A stretch of DNA of 61,249 nucleotides, counting the filler, from Globobulimina sp. (lineage: Eukaryota): the NCBI GenBank assembly GCA_003354225.1. It is 21 parts of 21 records of this genome, joined end to end, with 100 filler letters (N's around TTAATTAATTAA, not from the genome) between each part and the next. Parts side by side here need not be neighbours in the genome. Positions count along the whole stretch, not along the records: positions 29,228 to 32,048 come from PIVH01004743.1; 20 more parts are not named here. One strand, given 5' to 3'. Shown one piece after another: positions 17,620-57,651 of this stretch (the first letter of the stretch is position 1; each line of letters begins with the position of its first letter). The notes under the pieces were generated by a model. That model was given only the letters and a program-made list of their open reading frames with translations, had not been told where the DNA came from and did not search any database. The position numbers and the translations under genes were made by a program.

Positions 17620-18655
17620 ATGACGGATACAACAGCCACAGCAGCAGATCAAACGGAAAGTAAACCAGCTAACAATGCTAATGAATTGGTGTTTGATCCT
17701 GATCAAAAACGATTTCTATCATTTGAATCCAATGTGAGTTATGACGAAATCCTCAATAAGAGCAGTAAAAGCAGAATCAGTGAAGGCATCGTACATATGC
17801 TTAACTTAGCAGCTATCACAGTGTTAGTAGTGCCATTGGCTCACTCTTCTTTATCTTATGAGAATATCGCTGGTTTTGCCTTATTATTGATATATTTGGT
17901 ATATTTGGGTCATATCTGGTATTTGTATGCGACCGCACATTCAATGCACCGAATACATACAGTATTGGGCACCCCGCCAAATTGGATTAATATGAGTATC
18001 GCGTACGGCAACGAGAGTATTTTGGATCAACCGATTACATCAATTTCTGAATTTAGTGCTATTGCGGGTGGTGTCGGCAAGATGTTGTTAGCGAGAGTTG
18101 GGACAATCACATGGGGCATACTTATCACTTTGGTTACTGTGCAAATCAAAGAAAATACGCTTGTCGTTGGTGATGGTGTCATATTGGAAGTTATCGGGGC
18201 GTTTGGAATTGATATGATTGGTTTGTATACATATTTTTATAAAACAACTTATTGCGAATTTGCGGATTTTAAAACAATAATATTGTCTGTATATGTTTCT
18301 GTGTATAGGGACATTTTACGATGATCCACATTCGCTTGGAATGAGATGTTTTCATTTCGGTGGTATTATATTAGGGTTGTGCTGTTTGATTGGATTTTGG
18401 ATTCAAAGAGTGAACGAAGGCGAACATATCTGGGTTGCCGCTCTTTTAACAGTAACATTTTTGGTCTTCTTTGCTTTGTTTTGGTTTTATGACAAATGTT
18501 TTCCAATTCCGCAAAAGATCAAAAATTTATCACAGGAAGATGCTTTGAAATTTATCACCAAAAGATCAAGAATATTAATTGGATTTGAAACCATCGGTCT
18601 CGGAAGTCTCTCATTCTCGCTTTGTTTTTTTTTTATGATGTATCCCGATAACTAA
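17620..18655 (+). CDS. Multi-pass membrane protein (weak Frag1/DRAM-like resemblance)
   Basis: Intron 18221-18308 joins MIG|TFY in frame. About 7 hydrophobic segments. Confidence 0.65.
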
Positions 18656-23594: not shown

Positions 23595-23809
23595 TGTTGT
23601 GGAAGAGTGTTTTTGATGCTTTCGGAAAAAAAACTGTGAACAGTAAGTGTGATGTTGCACTCATATGAGCCAAAAGAGCAAACAACTGAAAGGTTTGTTT
23701 ATTTACAAAGAATCCAAACAAATTGAAATCTTACAAATTGGCATTTAGCAACAAAATACCAATTGAATTAAGAAATAAATATAAAATATTTACAACCAAT
23801 TACAAACAA

Positions 23810-24466
23810 CTATTTAGCATTGCAGTTGAATCTATGTTGGCATTTCCACGAAATCTTTTGACAATGCCTACTGCAGTAACGCACGCGTTTGCAGTTTGAA
23901 CATAACTTTAAAATGACACATTTTGCATCACAACGATCACAATATTTGCGTTTTCTTACGTTCTTTTTAGCGGTGTATATCGTCGGTATGCCATTATTTT
24001 TTTATTGTTGGTTTATTTTTAACCATGGAATGATAACATTTGATTTTTTTAATTCATTCTCCCACCATAACTTCATGGACGATGAGATAAAAAACATATG
24101 TCCAGGTTGGATATTTGTATTATTTCCAAACATATTTAATGAAAATGTATCTGATGTGGTAGTGTTTACTAATATAACTTGTCCGTCTGCTGTTGAACTG
24201 TTCCGATCATAAACTAATGTTAAAAATCGTTCTGCAGTGACAACATTAATAATTGCGACAAGTTTGCTTGTCTTCATATCCATCACCATTTCACCGAATT
24301 GACCGAAACCACCTATTAATATTTTACCCAATCTAGTTGCGAATGCGTTAGTTTTGAACACCAGAGATTTTGTGAGTTTTGTATCTGGAATCAAAACAAA
24401 TCCAACATTCTGATAACAATTTGGTAATCCTATAATGCGACTATTCGTTTTCCAAACGTTGGACAT
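23810..24466 (-). pseudogene. MYND zinc-finger protein interrupted by one in-frame TAA
   Basis: After TAA 24004-24002 the same frame continues 'KNNG...YCDRC...KLCSNCKRVRYCSRHCQKISWKCQHRFNC' to TAG 23812-23810. Confidence 0.75.
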
Positions 24467-28489: not shown

Positions 28490-29127
28490 TTAATACCAAC
28501 GTTTGAAGCTCCTTTTTTTCTTTTTTGAAGTTGCTTTTTTTTTCTTTTTATTTTTATTGTGATGATATGTATTCATTTTTGTCCAATCCATTTCGCCAAA
28601 AAAATTAATCATTTTCCAATCATCTTTTGTATATTCGCCAATATTATAAAACACAGATTCGTTTTCAGAACATGTAATTTCTTTTTCTTTATAAAATATA
28701 TAACTCGGAATATATGATTTTATATCTTTTACAATATCTGAATATAATCTATTTCTTTTGTACAGTGATTGTCCATAATATGATATTCCATGATTACTAT
28801 TTTTATTTGATACAATCTGAGGAATTATTACTTGATTTTCTTTCTTCAATCGAGCTAAATCAGGCAATTTTAAATCCGCTGATACCAAAACAATGAATGA
28901 TTGATAACCGACATATTGCAATAAAAAATCATACATCACCCATAAATTAGGAATAATTTGAAATAATACATCTTTTAAAAGAATATTTTTATTATGATGA
29001 CAGAATGATAGCTCCCAACAACTATCATAATCATAATAATAATAAGATTTATTATTATATGATATCGATTTTTTTTTGTATAATTGGGAAGATTTAATTC
29101 CTTGAAATGCATTCAATATTTCATTAT
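28490..29127 (-). CDS. Hypothetical protein with basic C-terminal tail (5' partial)
   Basis: ORF of more than 200 aa ending in a K/R cluster. No family recognised. Confidence 0.45.
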
Positions 29128-29227
29128 NNNNNNNNNNNNNNNNNNNNNNNNNNNNNNNNNNNNNNNNNNNNTTAATTAATTAANNNNNNNNNNNNNNNNN
29201 NNNNNNNNNNNNNNNNNNNNNNNNNNN

Positions 29228-30755
29228 CAACACGCACCGCATATGAAGAGCACGCAATCGCAGTCCCAGTCGCATCCCTATGCACATGCACAGGCACAGG
29301 CCCATAATATGGAGAGTAGTATGGATTCATTGGATGGCGGCAACCACCATCGCGATTATGGCACTGCGTCGTACGACCCGTCCTTTGCGTATCCAGACGC
29401 AATGTACGATGACGAGTTGTTGCCCAAGCTCGCGTCTGGTGCCGTCGAGTCTGGCTTTTGTGAGATTATCATCCCGAACAGCGTGGTGGGCCTCATCATC
29501 GGCAAAAATGCGTCCAATGTGAAGGCGATGAAGGACCGGACGCGGTGCGATATTCGCGTGCAGAAAGACGAGGAGACCTTACCGCAGGCGGACACACGGT
29601 TGGTGGCGTTGCGAGGCTGTGTGCAATCGCTGAAAGCCGCGAGACAGGAAATTGCCAAAGTTATTCATGTATGTCTTATGTTACGTAGTGTATGCTCGAA
29701 TATTATGATGAATGTTTATAGCACCACTGTTGGAGCTGAGATAGATTATTTTTCTGCGCATTTTAGTATAGTTGAATTATAACCTTTTTGTGGAGGTTAC
29801 ACACAATTTTTGTGGTTAATCTTTGTTATATTTGACGGTCTATCTCGGCGATGAGTTGTGAGTGCGCAGGGGCTCTGATATATGTTTTGTTTTTGTTTGA
29901 TCGATGCTGTTTTGTATGCTTTGTGTGTGACATTATGTGTGTTTTTGACAGATGGCAAATGCGCAAAAACAAGGCGCAACCATAGCGAGTATGCAGCAGC
30001 AGAATTATCACCAAATAATGTACCAACAGCAGATGATGTATCAGCAACAGCAACAGCAACAGCAGCAACAACAAATGATGTATCAGCAGCAACTGGGATA
30101 TACACATCCGTATTCACAGCAATATCCACAACAAATGTATACGCCGCAACAGGCCGGAATGGATAGCAATACACAGCAAATGCAGCCGGCTGGATATTAT
30201 CAACAACCATGGCAAGCACAGCAAGCTCCGCCTCCGCCACCGCCGCCGCCAAATGATAAGCAAACTGAGAGCAATGAAGCACCACAGGACGAGAAAGGAA
30301 AAGGTGAGGAAAATGATAGCGTTGCTGTATCAGCACCAAATACCAACAAAACAGAGGAGAAAACTGATAAAACACCGGACAAAGATGGGGGAGATGATGA
30401 TGGTGGCGGTGGCAGCGAGAATGCACAGACAGTACAGCAACAGCAATATGCAAAAATGTTGGAGTCGTATGGATGGACAGCACAACAAATTACAGCGTAC
30501 CAACAATATCCTCAGTATTATCAACAATATTATCAGCAATACGCACAGCAATATCCTCAGTATGCGCAGCAATATCAAGCTGCGATGCAACAAAAAATGC
30601 AATCTCAACCGGCACCGCCTCCACCACCGCCTACAACGGAGGATAACGGGAATAAAGCAAATATGAATGATAGTGATGTGAATAAGGATGACTCGTCTGG
30701 TCAAACGCAGACAACTGTAATGGAATCAAATGAAAATAATAATGAGACTCAATAA
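29228..30755 (+). CDS. KH-domain RNA-binding protein (FUBP-like) with Q/Y/P-rich tail (5' partial)
   Basis: KH domain 'IIIPNSVVGLIIGKNASNVKAMKDRTRCDIRV...LRG....ARQEI'. Phase-0 intron 29669-29951. Confidence 0.85.
29700..29883 (+). ncRNA. Candidate intronic box C/D snoRNA guiding 2'-O-methylation of U6 snRNA (C62 equivalent)
   Basis: Box C ATGATGA 29705-29711, D' CTGA 29736-29739, C'-like CGATGA about 29849 and box D CTGA 29875-29878. The guide TGCGCAGGGGC (29863-29873) is complementary to the conserved U6 sequence GCCCCUGCGCA. Confidence 0.75.
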
Positions 30756-31180
30756 CATTTGTTGAATTTTGAGTGGTGAATTATTTATTTTTTTCATTGA
30801 GTTTAAAATTCTCTCAAATGTTATTAACCTAATTATAAATTTTTGTTGTTCTTGCAATGGTGGTCGCTACTGTAGTACTAGTTCAATAAATATCATGTTT
30901 CTAAATAATCGAAGAATCAGGTTTTCATCGTCATATTTTTATTGCGGAACGGTCGAAGCAAAAAGCATGTATAAAGCATGACAACACCTACAAACCGTAC
31001 AACCACTCAAGATGGTTTATAAAGTAGTAACATCAAGAAATGAAACGACATTTTGAAAAGGCACAGAACACACAAATAGATTTACGTTAACCACCGCCAA
31101 CAAAAAAACAAAAGTTATCAGCGAATATTAATGTCAGCAATGTTAATAATTCCAGCACTTTACCGATATCGATAACGGAT

Positions 31181-32048
31181 GTGCCAGAAACATATGACGA
31201 TGAATTTGAATTTGATCAAGATAACGAGTCTAATTGGAGTGACTGTGATGTTCGTTTTACTGATTCAGATGTTTCATTGTCAAACAAACCAATTGCACGA
31301 ACACCATCTACTCTGACAACTCAATATTGGCTATGTATACAATGCAAGGAACTTAACAGTTAAATTAATAAATTATCATAATGAAATTATCAATAATAAC
31401 ACTATATACATAATACACCACAGATTTAAAAGATACATTCAGTAAATATGATATGAAATGTTTTCGTTGTGATTGTCGCTATAATATTAAATCAAAAGTA
31501 ATATCATTACAATGTGATGCACAACAAAGTGAACAAACAGCATGGAAATGTACACAATGCACATTCTGCAATACAACCAATATAAATCAATGTGAAATGT
31601 GTCAAGCTGACAAATTAATAAATAATGAATCTGAGCCAGTGGCCCCATTCAAAAAGAAATATTGTGATGAATATTCAACCAGTTTAGTTCGTGGATATTT
31701 AAGAGCGTTATGTCCATTCAACTCAACAATACCAGAGATTTTATCTATTGTAGTTTTAAAATTTTATCAATTTTGTAATTTCTGGAACGTGCTATATTTA
31801 AAAAGTTGGGATTTTGAGGAAGCCGGTTCTGAGAATGGACATATTATGTATGATAAAAGCACATTGATATTGAAACATTTACTCACGAATGAAACACATT
31901 GGGTTCATGCATATTCCTCGCAAAGAGTAGAATATTTAGGTGATTATTCATGGACATTACAAATACAAAATATTGGAAACGTTGCTGAAATCACAGATAC
32001 TGCAGTTTGCTGGATTGGTGTCGTTGAATCTGACCATAGGTTGGGAAT
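31181..32048 (+). CDS. RanBP2-type zinc finger protein with SPRY-like C-terminal region (start uncertain, 3' partial)
   Basis: 'WLCIQCKELN|...CFRC' across intron 31359-31423, 'WKCTQCTFCN....CEMC', and 'YSWTLQI...WIGVV'. Confidence 0.65.
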
Positions 32049-32848: not shown

Positions 32849-33543
32849 TTTGAATTGACAAGATTAAGCTACGATGTTTTCAAGTAAGGTACACTTTCAT
32901 CTTAATCTAGGCTTGCTTGTATCAGGTTCTAAAAGGAAAGACTTCAATTCCTCGATATGACAAAGTTAGATTTATCGGTTTGAAAAGTCATGCGAATAAA
33001 AAGGAAGAAAATATCATAGGATTTTTATGGAACATTAATTGATAATTAAATCACGGAATGATTGGTTGTTATTTTATGTGGCATATTCCCGCCTTTTCGC
33101 ACAGCAAATTTGTGTTTCCTGTGGAAATAATAAAACAGATAAAATGTATCCATCATATTATTGGTTGAATAAACTTGTTTTGCAAGGATCGATATTTTAT
33201 TTAAAATTTTTAAAATGATATTTGCGCATATTAAAATGCTGCATTTTTTTAAACAATGAACCTGTGAAATTTTTAAATAACTCCGCGAATATTGATTTTC
33301 AGAGATTGAAAATAGCCCCATTGGAATCAGCGTGATCCATTATTCGATACCATCTGAACTTTTTTTATCCAAACCGGGATTTTCAAGTTTTTTCTTTTTC
33401 CACTTCAAAAAATAACTTTGCTTCTTAGTTAAGAATGAAGCACACGTCCAAAAAATCTTGTATGTTGCGTGCATTAATTAAAAATTAAATTGTAACTAAT
33501 AAATGATAAAATAAAATAAAATAAATAAAATAATACAGTCGCA

Positions 33544-34969
33544 ATGCTTGGGTTGGATGATAATGAGGAAAATGAATTGCCGGAAGAATACAAACAAGGG
33601 CTTTATTATCCGACAGAGCTAAAAAATAATGAATTAGACTCATTTTCAATGAGAGAGTTATATAACATACATTTAGGAGTACACAATAAAGACAGAGGTA
33701 TCAATGGAAACGGCCATGGACCGAGTTCGACTTCATTTTTTAATTCGGCCTCGGCAATGACCACAATAAGAACCATTGACATAGCAGCAAACCCAAACAA
33801 TCAATCACTATCCGGCAGTGGTAGTGGTAGTGACGAAAAAGAGAGAAAAAGCGACATTATGGCTTGTGAAGGGGATTTTTATCAGTTAGTCTTCGATATA
33901 AAACATTGCATATTCAAAGCAGGCAATGACACAAAATTATTATTTTCAATCTATGACTATACCGATAATCGCATAATATCTGAAGAATATTGCCTTCATT
34001 TATCGGGAAATAATTTCCCCAAAGTCGGATCCCCCGAAGATTGCAAAGTATTATTTAAAAACTTGTCGTATGACGTATTGCAGCACGACATCTATATAAC
34101 ATGTCGTATTTATCGCATTGGGCCCATGGAAGCGCCCGATGTTATGAGCTCTAAACAACAAAAAAAAAGTGATAAAAAAAATAAAAGCGGTTCAAAAGCA
34201 GGGAATGAAATTGTTCGGCCTTATGCTTCCACAGTAATCCCGTTAAGGGATCATATAAATAAATTATTTTCATGTTTAGGGGAAGAGGTCAAATTTGAGC
34301 CAGGCACAGCGCCTATTTGTTGTCCAAGAGACGAATCGAATTTTATCCCATTAATCTTTGACTTAATTAAAAAAGAGAAGCAAAACCAACATTATATCGC
34401 ACCGTTATCCATTGGTATCGCTCACGGATTAATATTATACCGAGGCGGGGTGGAAGTGGTTGAAAAGAATTACTCTTTTTATGATAAATTAACCGAAGTG
34501 GAGACAGTGGATATTGACCCAACATTGCACATTGATCGCCACATATTGTACGTGACCATTCGCGACGTTCACGTGAACCAAAGGAACAAGAGAGCGGCCT
34601 GCAATGTCTGTATAAAGATGCAATTACGCGACAATAACACATACAAAGCCTTGCCTGGCTCCATGATGTTGGGCAAAGGCAAAATGGCCGTCCCAACCTC
34701 TGAGACCGTATCGCCTGTCTATTACCACAACAATGACCCACTTATCAATCAAACCTATCATATACTGATCCCATCAAACATTGATGTCTTATCCAACTGC
34801 CATTTATACTTTACATTATGGCACATTCCGGCCACGAATAAGAAACCAGACGAGCGAGGTTTTGCTTATATTAAATTATTCCATAACAAATTAAAACAAT
34901 TAACTGCTGACAACGAATATGAGCTACCTCTATATCGACATGTTAAATCGACACAAAATATGTATCTCG
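33544..34969 (+). CDS. DOCK: DOCK-family Rho GEF: N-terminal region and C2/DHR-1 domain (partial)
   Basis: 'LGLD', 'LLFSIYD...ISEEY', 'IYRIGPM', 'RPYA', 'LYVTI', 'SPVYYHNNDP', 'HLYFTLWH', 'FAYIKL'. Confidence 0.82.
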
Positions 34970-37890: not shown

Positions 37891-37990
37891 NNNNNNNNNN
37901 NNNNNNNNNNNNNNNNNNNNNNNNNNNNNNNNNNTTAATTAATTAANNNNNNNNNNNNNNNNNNNNNNNNNNNNNNNNNNNNNNNNNNNN

Positions 37991-39839
37991 GTTGCCCAAA
38001 AAGGCAGAGCATAATGTGACGTTATTTGAGAAAGCGCCCTCTATCGATGAGACTTTTAATAAACACAAATTCGTGGACCATACATCGAAGAGAGGGATCA
38101 AGAAATTCCCGCAGCCGCCGCTCAGTGAATGGGTCGGGCGATTCAAAACCATCCACGATTTGATGCATAACATATTGTCTGATAACTTGGTGGTTATCTC
38201 TTGCGACAAAGGCCTGGGCAAAACCGCTATGATTTGCAGGACTTTGCATTATTTATGGGATCGCTCCTTGTTAGACGGCATATATTACTTTAATATCTAC
38301 CAAATATTGAAGAAAAATCCATCGTTATCTATTGCTCAGATTGTGTTTCGAAGCATATATCCGAAGCAGAAGAAGAATAACATCAATAATAAAGACTTGA
38401 TTGCCATCTTGCAACAGGAAGAGGAGAATGGCGGCGGTAAAGGCGTCTTGATTGTGTTTGAAGATATTGACGAGTTTGAGTATGAACATTTGGCTGAAGA
38501 TCAGCGGATTGATATTTTCATCGAGGAACTATTAGGTTTGTGTGACACTGTTAAGTTATTGTTGACTTTGGGGACTCCGGTGAATCAATGCTCGTTTTTG
38601 GCGAAATTGGATAAGCGAGTGGTTAAATTGAAGCCGTTGAAGAATGAGCAATCCATTAAATTGCTGGAGATTTATTTGCAAAAACATTTCTCTTTAAATA
38701 AGATTCGGAGCAATATCCCATTGGAGAAAATTGCGTCGTTTTGCAAAGGATATCCATTATTAATCAAATACGCTGCCTCTCGCTTTCAAAACGACGATGA
38801 TTTGTCAAATTTGAACCTACGAAAGCAAATCCGGGAACAGGTATTGACTGAGTTCGAAGCGCTCAAAATGACGCGATATTGGAAGGAGTTGTCTTTGGAA
38901 CGCAATAATTTGCGAATTGGCGAATTAAAACAGCGGATTCGACAGCGAGATGGCCAGGAACTGTGGGAGGAAATGTATGGTTATCGCTCGCGCGGATTAT
39001 TGAATACATTGTTATATCGCATGAAAGAATGGTATCGAGAGCATGTCGGCGATGCGCAATTCAGATGTCGACCCATTTGGACCTATTACGAGTTGGAATT
39101 CATCCAAATGGAATTGTTGCCATTTTTGGCGAAAAACACAAAGTCTACGTTCAAACCGCCCAAAGAAGTGGTACAGCGGTTGGAGACCAATGATTATATA
39201 AAGATTATGGCGGACCACAACGGCAACAAAGCCAGTAAGAAGAAGTGGTATCATTTTGGGGGGAAACATAAGAATAAGAAGCCGCAGAGCAAAAAGCAAA
39301 AGGTTTATATGGCGGACGATGACGATGATAATAAGGTGTCTGAGGAGGAGAAGATACCCATTGAAGTATTTGCGGAGTTCTTTGAGTTTTGGAAGGAATT
39401 ATGGCGCACTATGATGGAGCCCAAAGTATCGCCGTTTTATTTTAAGAAGGATGAGATTTGTTTGATTGCAGGCATGATGTGCAAGGACAGGGCGTTGACC
39501 ATCATCTCGCAGTATGCCAAGGGCACTTTTTTGATTCGATTCAGTAAACAAAATGCAGGCTCGCTTGTGTTGGTGGTATCGACTGGTCCGGATCAGAAAC
39601 CATCGCAGCATAAAATTTATATAAATAAAAATATTGACGATGGGACCATCACTTTTGAGTATCAAACGGTGCGGAAAGGTATACATAGATCGAATTCTTT
39701 GTATGATTTGTTTAATCACTTACAATTTTTGGAACATTTATGGTATAAAAAAAGAGGCAATGATCAGGAATATATTCAAACGGATAAACGGAAAATATTA
39801 AAATTCTTTAAATCAAGAGCTGATGTTTGGAAATTGTAA
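37991..39839 (+). CDS. STAND/NB-ARC-like NTPase fused to a C-terminal STAT-type SH2 domain (5' partial)
   Basis: 'WVGR', Walker A-like 'CDKGLGKT' (38202-38225), Walker B 'LIVFEDID', 'LKPL...SIKLL' and GxP 'CKGYPLLI'. SH2 'IAGMMCKDRA...KGTFLIRFSKQNAGSLVL' (about 39465-39575). Confidence 0.82.
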
Positions 39840-40811: not shown

Positions 40812-40911
40812 NNNNNNNNNNNNNNNNNNNNNNNNNNNNNNNNNNNNNNNNNNNNTTAATTAATTAANNNNNNNNNNNNNNNNNNNNNNNNNNNNNNNNN
40901 NNNNNNNNNNN

Positions 40912-42998
40912 ACAAGTTCAAAGTGGCGGTGACTGGCAAAAAAATCAATGTCCACCACATCGAGAACCTATTCCAGATCCATTCCACCGCCGAATCCTTC
41001 ATGTTATACGCCGCGACGCTCAAAGACATGCAAGAATGGATCGGCGTTGTCACCAAAACCTGCCATGACTACGTATCGCTGGCCACCACCGTCAAAAACG
41101 AGGAGCTCTCCGCCACCAAAAATGTGTACGCCGCGACACTGCAAATTCCAAACGACTTTGCCGAGAAATGCATGAATGGGACTGGCTGCGCTACAAAGTT
41201 CTCGTTTGTGAGCCGCAAACATCATTGCAAGTATTGCGGATTTGTAGTCTGCAGCAAGTGTTCGAGCAATCAGTTGCAATCTCGGCCCACCGCGGCCGAC
41301 GCCGGCACCACAATGGTGAGAGTGTGCGATGTCTGCTATGCAAAGCATGCCGGCGTGAAAAAGGACGCCAGTTCGCCGGCATTGGCGCATCAGCCCACCC
41401 CCAAAGCATTGGATATTTTGGGCTATGCCCGGCCGCCAACCGCCAGTCGGAGGAAAACGCTGAAAACGTTTGGCAGAGTGCGCGAAAACGAGTTGTTGAA
41501 AATGTATGAGAAACGAGCGAAAAAAGCAGAGGCTGAGGAGAAAAAAGAGGCAGTTCGAAGCAGTGGCGGACGGAATGTGCCACCTCCACCGCCGAAAAAA
41601 AAGCAGGCCGCGGCCGCTGTGTTGGATTTTGTGAAACTTGACATCGAGCCCAAGTTAATTGCATTGGAGACCGATAAGAAGAAATTGGAAGAAAAAGCGG
41701 CTGGTTTGCAAGCGGAGAATGACAGTTTGAAAAGCGAGCGATATGCAGAGAAACAGGCAACGGACAAAATGGCGAAGCAGAATGACGAATTGGTGCACGA
41801 TAACGAGAGATTGCAGTCGTTGTTGGATAAATTGTCGTCGACCACCGACCAGAAGAAGAAAGCGGAGCAAATTCAAAATGCGAAAATCAAAACATTGCAG
41901 TCGCACAACGACAATTTACAAACTGAGCTGAAGCTGAAAGAAGAAGAGATTGCGCGGCTTTTGCATTATAAGCAGAATTACGACCGATTGGAAAGCAAAT
42001 TGCGAGAAAAGGACGAGCAGTTTGGAGAATTATTGAGCAAATTCGGCAAATTGCACGAAATCAACAAGGAGATCGATGAGATGACCCAGTTAGCGGACGT
42101 CAGTAAGTCGGCTTCGTCGTCGCCCAGCAAAGCAGCAGCTGTCCCTCCAACAGTGGCGAGCATGGCGAGCCTCACAGTGAGCCATGCTGAGAGTGAAAAA
42201 AAACTTGAAGTGGATGCTAGTCAGTCACAGTCACAGTCACAGCGAGTGTGCCAAACCTGCAATAAAAAGATAGTTGGCCGCGCATTGCGCACAAAGGGCG
42301 GCTTACACCACAGAGCCTGCCATGTGTGCAAGGACTGCAATGTGTCGTTAGCGGGCAAGAAATATGGCATCACGCAGGCAAACGGCAAGAAAATCAAATT
42401 GTGCGAGCAATGTACAAATAAAATCAACGAAACGCGTCTGCTGCAGACACGGCAGAGACATAAAAGCAAATCGTCGTTGATGGACCAAATGAACCAATTT
42501 CGAAGTTCGGCCACCAGAGTACCCAAGCCATGGGAGACGAATTTAAATAAAAAATCTGTCAACAATACGCTAAAACCCTCGATAGCGGCGTCTATGGCGG
42601 CAAACCATAAAGGAAATAGCAATGAGAATGTGCCCAAAGCGAGGATGAAAAAATCCAGGTCAGTGAGCAAAATGGACACAGCTTTTTTAGGCGGTTACGG
42701 CGCGAAAAAAAGCAGTCGCAAATCTGCCTCGTTGATGACGCAAAAGAAATGTAGCAAATGCAAAGTGGCCATCTTTGGCAAGAATAAAGTGGAGGGAGCA
42801 AATGGCGCCGTGTTTCATCCGAATTGTTTTCGCTGTTTTGACTGTGATAACGAACTGCCAGCAAAGAATTGGAGGTCGTATCCGTCGCAAAGCAAAAAAG
42901 GAGGCAATAATATATTGACATTGTGCCCAAATTGTGTGCAAAAAAGAGATGAAGCACTCTTTTCGCAGTACAGAGGCAAACTTAAACTTAATATCTAA
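40912..42998 (+). CDS. PH-FYVE-coiled-coil-LIM-LIM protein (5' partial)
   Basis: PH end 'SFMLYAATLKDMQEWI', FYVE 'RKHHCKYCG.VVCSKCS...RVCDVC', coiled coil, and two LIM domains (CQTC...HRACHVCKDC; CSKC...FHPNCFRCFDC). Confidence 0.88.
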
Positions 42999-55511: not shown

Positions 55512-57454
55512 CATCTTTTTCCTTTTTTCTTTTTTTTTTCTTTTTTGATTTTTTCGATTTTTTCGAATGTTCGATGTCACCGTTTTTAACATTTCCTTTT
55601 CCTTCATTTTCTTGTTGATTATTCATAGGATTTATCATTAAATCGGGGATATTGACGCCTTCTTTCAATATATCAGAGTTTATGGAAGATTGCGACGTCG
55701 AAGAGTCTAAATTGCCATTATGTTCATCCTCGCTGTCTGTACTTGCAATTGTGGAGGAATCGTCATCCAAATCACTGCCATCATCCTCACTCTCTGTACC
55801 CGAAGACGAAGACGAATAATAATCCTCCAATTTGCCTGATATCATACCGCCGACATTCATATTATTACCACCCAAAACTTTCTTTTTTTGCAATTGCCCT
55901 TGCTTTGGATGATAACCTTCAATTAACACATTATATAATACATAGTTGCGATTTTGCGGTGGAAATACAAACTCAACTTTGTTTTTTCTGTGAATTGGAT
56001 TTCCTCGATTTCGACTTATTGGACATATTTGCGGGATGTGCGCCGGGCGCCATATTGTTGACATTGGACTGATGATATTGTTGCTGTTGCTGTTGTTTTT
56101 TTAATTTCTTATTATTTTGATGCATTTGATGGATGGCTTGGTGTTGTAACTGTTGTTGTTGATTATTTACAATGGGACCTTGGCCTTGCTGCTGTTGGTG
56201 TTGTTGTTGTAATTGTTGCTGTGCCGCCAATAATTGTCGCCGTTGGTGTTCCTGTCTTTGTTGGGCTAAATAATTGACATAATGCACATGGTCATTATTG
56301 CCGCGGCCGCCGGTGCCGGAATCATTTGGTTTACGGTGCGGGTTGTTGTTGTTATTGGGCGGTGGCGGCGGCACATTGTACCTTTGCTGAACCATTGGGT
56401 GTGGACTGGGATTAGACGACGACACTTTGGTCGCTTTCACAATCCAATCATAGCGGCCATCATTGACATAGCCTTTCTTCTTAAATAAGTCTTTAAATAA
56501 ATTCTTGAGGTATTTATAATCGGGTTTGGCGTTGAAATCTAATTTCCGGCAATACCGCAAATACTCTGCAAATTGTTTGGGTGCGGCGCTGCATAACACA
56601 TCGATGGTAGTCTCGCGCTTCACTTTGGAGATGCGGTTGTATTTTTGCGTCTTGCTCTTTGCTTTCAAGCCTTGCCACGGTAACTTGCCGCCGCGATTGA
56701 AATACATCAAGACATAGCCTAAGGTCTCTAGGTCGTCTCTCCGCGCCTGTTCATAGCCTAAATGTGTATTGATGGAGGCATAGCGGGCGGTGCCCGTCAA
56801 CGATTTGCCTTCGATAAACGGAATATGTCTGCGAGTTTTTGGGTTAATATACCTTTTGCTGAGACCAAAATCTATGATAAAAACCACATTGAAGTTATTG
56901 GTGAGGCCAATGAGGAAGTTATCCGGTTTGATGTCGCGATGAATGAATTCGAAGGAATGTACAGATTCTATGCGTTCCAGCATTTGCTGAGCTAATAATA
57001 AGATGGTTTTAAGGGAGAAATTGCGCCCGCAATAATTAAATAAATCTTCCAAGGATGGACCTAACAAATCCATCACTAATACAAAGTATTCTTCTTCCTG
57101 GCCATAAAAATAGACGTTGGGCACACCCACACTGCCTTTCATGTGTTTGTAAATACGGGACTCGTATTGCAATTGGGGGTGTCGTGTGTTTGCTTTTTCT
57201 AATTTCACAGCCACTTTATGTCCGGTCTCTACATGTGTTCCTTTGTAGATCACACCAAATGATCCGCTACCTATTTTTTTGCCTAACCGATATTGCCCAT
57301 TCGCCACACGGATCTCAAAGGGACGCCCATGGGAATGCCCATGGTGTGAATGGCCGTGATGCGATGAGCCACGATGAGACGAACTCGTCTTTTTCGACCG
57401 GTGGGAATGATGCCCACTATGTCGACCTTCTTTTTCTTTGCGAGAGAAATCAAT
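55512..57454 (-). CDS. CK1: Casein kinase 1 with His-rich N-extension and polyQ plus acidic/basic C-tail
   Basis: 'IGSGSFG', 'HPQLQYE', '[10 protein letters not shown]', 'HRDIKPDNF', 'GTARYASIN', 'RRDDLE', 'LPWQG'. Intron 55917-55977 links to the S/D-rich last exon. Start codon uncertain. Confidence 0.93.
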
Positions 57455-57651
57455 CTTGAATCAATAGATTTCTCTACAATAACTAGATAATTTAAATAAA
57501 TATTATTAAATATTTGTTGCTAATATTTACTATTTGTTATAGATCCACGTTTTTAAACTGCCCACATTACGCTCCTACAGTTAAACTAAAGTGGAAAATT
57601 GTTCGTAAATAGTTTACCAAAACATCTTGACTCGTTGCTGCAAATTGCAAA

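Follow-up and report, generated by a model that had tools for sequence, protein, structure and literature searches.

A candidate box C/D snoRNA in a long Globobulimina intron, with a guide predicted to target U6 snRNA

Introduction

U6 is the catalytic RNA of the spliceosome. Methylations of its stem-loop have been mapped in humans, plants and fission yeast, and U6 ribose methylation is reported to be conserved in plants and in S. pombe. In human U6, ribose methylations are listed at A47, A53, G54, C60, C62, C63, A70 and C77. G72 pairs with C62, and in human cells Cm62/63 is needed for the efficient installation of m2G72. The vertebrate guide tied to U6 C62 is SNORD94 (U94), and changes in SNORD94 level alter methylation at this position.

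Outside animals, U6-directed box C/D guides are described in S. pombe (mgU6-47/snoZ30 and sno530) and in Neurospora (CD11, which may direct a U6 methylation). Sno-RNA-guided ribose methylation of U6 also occurs in the non-opisthokont Arabidopsis, with SnoR167, U27, SnoR53Y, SnoR26 and SnoR126 as guides; eight sites have been mapped in Arabidopsis U6, two of which, C57 and A65, carry no assigned guide in the published table. In the literature searched, guides for C positions of the U6 stem-loop are named only for vertebrates. Below, we describe a candidate guide for such a position in an intron of Globobulimina sp. and compare it with these systems.

The window and the host gene

The window, by which we mean the whole stretch of DNA that was analysed (61,249 nt including filler, from assembly GCA_003354225.1), joins 21 parts of 21 records, and the candidate lies in the part taken from PIVH01004743.1 (29228-32048). 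The window is gene-dense, with DOCK, FYVE-LIM, casein kinase 1 and RPEL genes recognised by Pfam. The best named relatives of the DOCK fragment (33529-34969, + strand) are three proteins of the foraminifer Reticulomyxa filosa, at 38-45% identity, which make up three of its ten matches. For the casein kinase 1 gene (55973-57460, - strand), relatives at 90-95% come from EukProt and JGI metagenomes only, and named databases seem to cover this lineage poorly. An ORF at 37947-39839 (+ strand) gives weak matches to NACHT (E 2e-5, below the Pfam cut-off) and SH2 (E 1.3e-4), an unusual pairing in one ORF if real. Runs of 44 N occur in pairs every ~2,920 bases across the window and evidently reflect masking, not assembly gaps; one such pair, at 29128-29227, covers the start of the host gene. 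The remainder of that gene, around the intron of interest, is laid out as follows.

29228-29668, + strand: host exon with a KH_1 RNA-binding domain (PF00013, E 7.3e-13); its upstream part is N.
29669-29951, + strand: host intron of 283 nt, GTATGT...ACAG (GT..AG).
29952-30755, + strand: host exon 2, an ORF with a Q-rich tail, covered by spliced contigs; it matches 0 Pfam families.

A sequence-only reading of this DNA had proposed a 283-nt intron here, and splicing bears it out: among contigs over 29228-32048, the joint 29668->29952 is present in those of three of the four runs used, namely X3, X6 and X7, which come from two studies. X1 contigs are unspliced at this place, the flanking exons continuing into both intron ends (29285-29762 and 29812-30004). 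The spliced X3, X6 and X7 contigs have no cover at 29703-29892, and assembled contigs of this kind cannot reveal a small RNA. The same reading had placed the other introns at 55-100 nt. This stands for the one further intron confirmed by joints (31359-31423, 65 nt; X3, X6 and X7) and agrees with most of the remaining candidates, which a crude ORF-joining script predicts at 62-95 nt; the rest are proposals of that script only, and the longer ones, which fall within uninterrupted ORFs, are probably spurious. Judged against one confirmed intron plus predictions, an intron of 283 nt is therefore unusually long. Within the host gene, contigs of two related organisms, C and B, differ by substitutions of ~5% and by ~1%, respectively, and the organism C contigs carry in-frame deletions of 3 nt and 12 nt in low-complexity parts (29305 and 30310-30392).

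Anatomy of the candidate RNA

The intron contains, in full box C/D order, a terminal stem, box C, box D', a helix-closed insert, box C' and box D. The features are listed here from 5' to 3', after the predicted RNA as a whole.

29700-29883, + strand: predicted mature box C/D RNA of ~184 nt, its ends inferred from the terminal stem.
29700-29703, + strand: 5' arm of the terminal stem, ATAT, pairing with ATAT at 29880-29883 (four A-U pairs, with a U-U adjoining the boxes).
29705-29711, + strand: box C, ATGATGA, a perfect RUGAUGA.
29721-29735, + strand: D' guide, GCACCACTGTTGGAG, 15 nt adjoining box D'.
29736-29739, + strand: box D', CTGA, a perfect match.
29738-29747 and 29837-29846, + strand: 5' and 3' arms of a 10-bp helix with 8 Watson-Crick and 2 G-U pairs; a script located the arm sequences GAGATAGAT at 29738-29746 and GTCTATCTC at 29838-29846.
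29740-29848, + strand: structured insert of 109 nt between D' and C', as judged by folding against shuffles.
29751-29760, + strand: internal U6-like pseudo-target, in which CTGCGCA (29754-29760) is Watson-Crick complementary to the guide at 29863-29869.
29785-29793 and 29807-29815, + strand: direct repeat TTTTTGTGG in the structured insert.
29849-29854, + strand: box C', CGATGA, agreeing with UGAUGA at 5/6 positions, with C in place of the usual U.
29863-29874, + strand: D guide, TGCGCAGGGGCT, consisting of TGCGCAGGGGC (29863-29873) followed by T29874.
29875-29878, + strand: box D, CTGA, followed by the last 73 nt of the intron.

A script search recovered every motif that the sequence-only reading had listed, each where that reading had placed it, and the claim of a box C/D architecture on the sense strand of the intron is supported. 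The 10-bp helix is placed where a stem would be needed to join D' and C' across a long loop. The nucleotide directly 5' of box D is a U able to pair with the final A of box C, and these are the two positions that pair in canonical kink-turns. Box C begins 36 nt past the 5' splice site. Hirose and Steitz reportedly found, in 2001, that a distance of ~70-80 nt to the 3' splice site is optimal for mammalian intronic snoRNAs, and the 73 nt that separate box D from the 3' splice site are near this value. Other features are atypical, namely the spacers of 24 nt from box C to D' (ending in the D' guide) and 20 nt from C' to D (ending in the D guide), the length of the insert (109 nt) and that of the whole RNA. 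With four A-U pairs only, the terminal stem is weak.

How readily such an arrangement arises differs among its parts. Among 200,000 shuffled versions of the intron, 694 contain boxes C and D together with a terminal stem of 4 bp or more. In real sequence such a layout is no rarity by itself: a loose scan for C, D and stem returns nine in the window, counting both strands, most of them within coding DNA. Other loose arrangements, such as that at 28559-28741, lie in or antisense to coding sequence and were set aside; a 328-nt candidate intron at 23643-23970 has no boxes. In 43 of 20,000 insert shuffles, the 12 nt past D' and the 12 nt before C' can form a helix of 10 bp or longer, and the fold of 29738-29846 (-25.6 kcal/mol) has a z-score of -3.77, with 0/200 shuffles as good. 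The guide followed by box D, allowing up to 2 mismatches, matches once in the window against 0.02 expected, and any such match is found in 2 of 100 shuffles. The D guide has 75% G+C, against 31% in the insert and 36% in the window, a compositional contrast with the insert that looks like the product of selection. Taken with the prior for U6 guides, of which eukaryotic genomes carry a few, the joint improbability of these features argues for a genuine C/D RNA gene.

The D guide and U6

A 12-bp duplex of -26.0 kcal/mol is predicted between UGCGCAGGGGCU, the 12 nt upstream of box D, and GGCCCCUGCGCA of U6, comprising 11 Watson-Crick pairs and one G-U pair at D+1; the U6 used here is the canonical sequence, which may not be that of the host. 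Opposite the fifth guide nucleotide, G29870, lies the third C in the CCCC stretch of canonical U6, which we take to be human C62. This placement is consistent with the G72-C62 pairing reported for human U6. On canonical U6, then, the D+5 arithmetic by which the sequence-only reading had arrived at C62 is correct, and its expectation that conserved U6 carries the guide complement also holds, with a printed C. elegans U6 template giving GGCCCCUGCGCA between ACAGAGAAGATTAGCATG, which includes ACAGAGA, and AGGATGACACGC; C62 itself is in the published human list and linked to SNORD94. The text of GGCCCCUGCGCA recurs in the literature, mostly in microRNA expression studies among the matches listed.

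The U6 stem-loop sequence varies among some lineages. For a cryptophyte nucleomorph, a published U4-like search string implies a U6 sequence, GCCCCUGUAUA, that differs in the target stretch. Viral contigs scanned for a U6-like pattern gave two loci, neither of which is U6 by Rfam. In our judgement, U6 is the most likely target of the D guide.

Database searches place the candidate in no described family. At the gathering score, Rfam gives 0 matches in the window, and for 29600-30000 at E up to 10 the sole match is ToxI noise; the candidate is thus recognised as a member of no Rfam family, SNORD94 included. Lacking any Rfam likeness to SNORD94, it would be a functional analogue of that guide and not a member of its family. 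With the E limit set at 5, Rfam returns three weak matches across the window, all far under threshold; the one resembling SCARNA7 (18185-18329) reads as part of a short, ordinary intron. A metagenome scan for GATGA-N(2-20)-guide-N-CTGA found 16 loci, all of G+C 0.52-0.70 and bacterial-looking, none of them in a snoRNA context.

The D' guide and the internal complement

The only long complement to the D' guide in the window is a 12-nt stretch at 42145-42156 (+ strand), within an ORF encoding FYVE and LIM domains (40860-42998). Pairing there is perfect from the position adjoining box D' and extends to 13/15 overall. By our own arithmetic, 122 kb of sequence should contain any one 12-mer ~0.007 times. 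Real snoRNA targets in mRNA are rare, and this complement may be due to chance. Beyond it no D' target was found, only 6 bp being seen, by eye, with the 3' end of the printed C. elegans U6, in agreement with the earlier statement that the D' guide has no recognised target. By these comparisons the D' guide is an orphan.

The D guide, for its part, has a predicted partner within the RNA itself. CUGCGCA at 29754-29760, extended by three upstream G-U pairs, forms a 10-bp duplex with it of -14.2 kcal/mol. When the four boxes are held unpaired, all guide nucleotides are paired with probabilities of 0.79-1.0 in the predicted ensemble, mainly with 29754-29760 and also with the start of the D' guide (29720-29725). 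The sequence-only reading had cautioned that an internal CTGCGCA could pair with the guide; the caution is correct and the effect stronger than stated, with the guide 79-100% paired in the fold. A Watson-Crick complement to the guide of at least 7 nt arises in 156 of 100,000 insert shuffles, a frequency computed after the feature had been noticed. UGCGCA is self-complementary, and a 6-nt repeat alone would give the same picture. As modelled, the internal complement may reflect chance, an aid to folding or a mask for the guide.

Interpretation

Taking the sequence evidence as a whole, we consider it likely that the intron encodes a box C/D snoRNA of ~184 nt whose D guide targets U6 at the equivalent of human Cm62. 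Splicing of the KH-domain gene intron, followed by exonucleolytic trimming to the protein-bound C/D kink-turn, would release the RNA, and its C/D and C'/D' motifs would, as in the rest of the family, bind Snu13, Nop56/58 and fibrillarin. The computed 10-bp helix would keep D' and C' together across the 109-nt insert, and the 12 nt upstream of box D would base-pair with GGCCCCUGCGCA, the 5' strand of the internal stem-loop of U6. By the D+5 rule on canonical U6, the ribose that fibrillarin would methylate is that of the third C in CCCC, corresponding to human Cm62.

Several other explanations have to be weighed against this one. Chance assembly of the motifs, with no stable RNA and an intron made long by a decayed insertion or a splicing-regulatory hairpin, is very unlikely in our estimation. 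Such an origin would fit the weak terminal stem, the nine loose arrangements of C, D and stem in the window (mostly coding) and the failure of both Rfam and the metagenome scan to supply a match or homologue. It is hard to square with the shuffle results (694/200,000 for boxes and stem, 43/20,000 for the D'/C' helix, z -3.77 for the insert), with the 0.02 occurrences of guide plus box D expected in the window even at 2 mismatches, or with the sense orientation and the position within the intron. A real box C/D RNA could instead have a job other than U6 Cm62, whether because U6 is divergent, because the D' guide is the one that works, on rRNA or some other target, or because the RNA is an orphan. 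The clean 15-nt D' spacer adjoining a perfect D' box and the variation of the U6 stem-loop among some lineages lend something to this, as does the frequency of orphan C/D RNAs, exemplified by the 9 of 47 in Dictyostelium reported to be without an rRNA target. We nevertheless regard it as unlikely, given that a random 11-mer would fall on one of the eight known U6 sites in D+5 register with a frequency of only ~8 in 4^11 (own arithmetic), and that a guide of 75% G+C within an insert of 31% G+C looks selected.

The internal complement allows a further alternative, in which the C/D RNP would bind U6 as a chaperone or gate of the U4-pairing strand, methylation being secondary and the pseudo-target switching the guide between masked and open states. 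U4 pairs in stem II with the very U6 strand that the guide covers. An internal complement of at least 7 nt, seen in 156/100,000 shuffles and predicted to occupy the guide, also speaks for such a role, and LARP7-family proteins are reported to bind structured stem-loops of U6-modifying snoRNAs. The shuffle statistic is, however, post hoc, and UGCGCA is self-complementary; we consider such a role very unlikely. An equally speculative proposal, to which we would give very little credence, is that the snoRNA is a self-gated U6 guide. The insert pseudo-target would mask the guide until the action of a LARP7-type chaperone or snoRNP assembly, and both this mechanism and the Cm62 guide would predate the split of Rhizaria, animals and plants. 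Were this true, methylation of the U6 stem-loop would be regulated.

Returning to the likely reading of a guide for U6 Cm62, its significance is narrower than had been proposed. The sequence-only reading had taken the candidate to suggest a deep origin of the modification, which is overstated, since U6 methylation has already been reported in plants and S. pombe, and these data by themselves point to an old mark. The new element would be a guide in a rhizarian-like protist, together with its bulky structured insert, within a kind of RNA already known. A credible protist guide for Cm62 would be relevant to the question of whether guide and mark were inherited from a common ancestor or had several origins. 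No snoRNA study of this lineage is among the matches listed in our literature search, and the candidate offers a concrete RiboMeth-seq target in such a lineage.

Comparison with known U6 guides and C/D systems

SNORD94 shares with the candidate the predicted target nucleotide and the class of RNP. The two differ in lineage and host gene, the candidate has a 109-nt insert between D' and C', and no homology in sequence or structure is detectable between them (no Rfam match at E up to 10).

Among protist repertoires, the C/D snoRNAs of Dictyostelium, defined by boxes plus RNA-seq, offer a second comparison. As described, they are intergenic except for CD38, with guides mapped to rRNA sites, whereas the candidate is intronic and its D guide is predicted to be directed at U6.

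Arabidopsis supplies a complementary case. Its C57 probably corresponds to human C62, if the numbering is shifted by -5 as the A48 and A65 entries of the site table and the C. elegans count suggest. If so, plants would have the mark without a known guide, and Globobulimina a candidate guide without a mapped mark.

The fission-yeast guides allow a comparison of pairing as well. Their targets differ from that of the candidate, snoZ30 being directed to A41 and sno530 to A64, and sno530 is without a canonical C box and fold, whereas the boxes of the candidate are canonical. Sno530 pairs with U6 over 12 nt with one non-Watson-Crick pair, as the D guide of the candidate is predicted to do.
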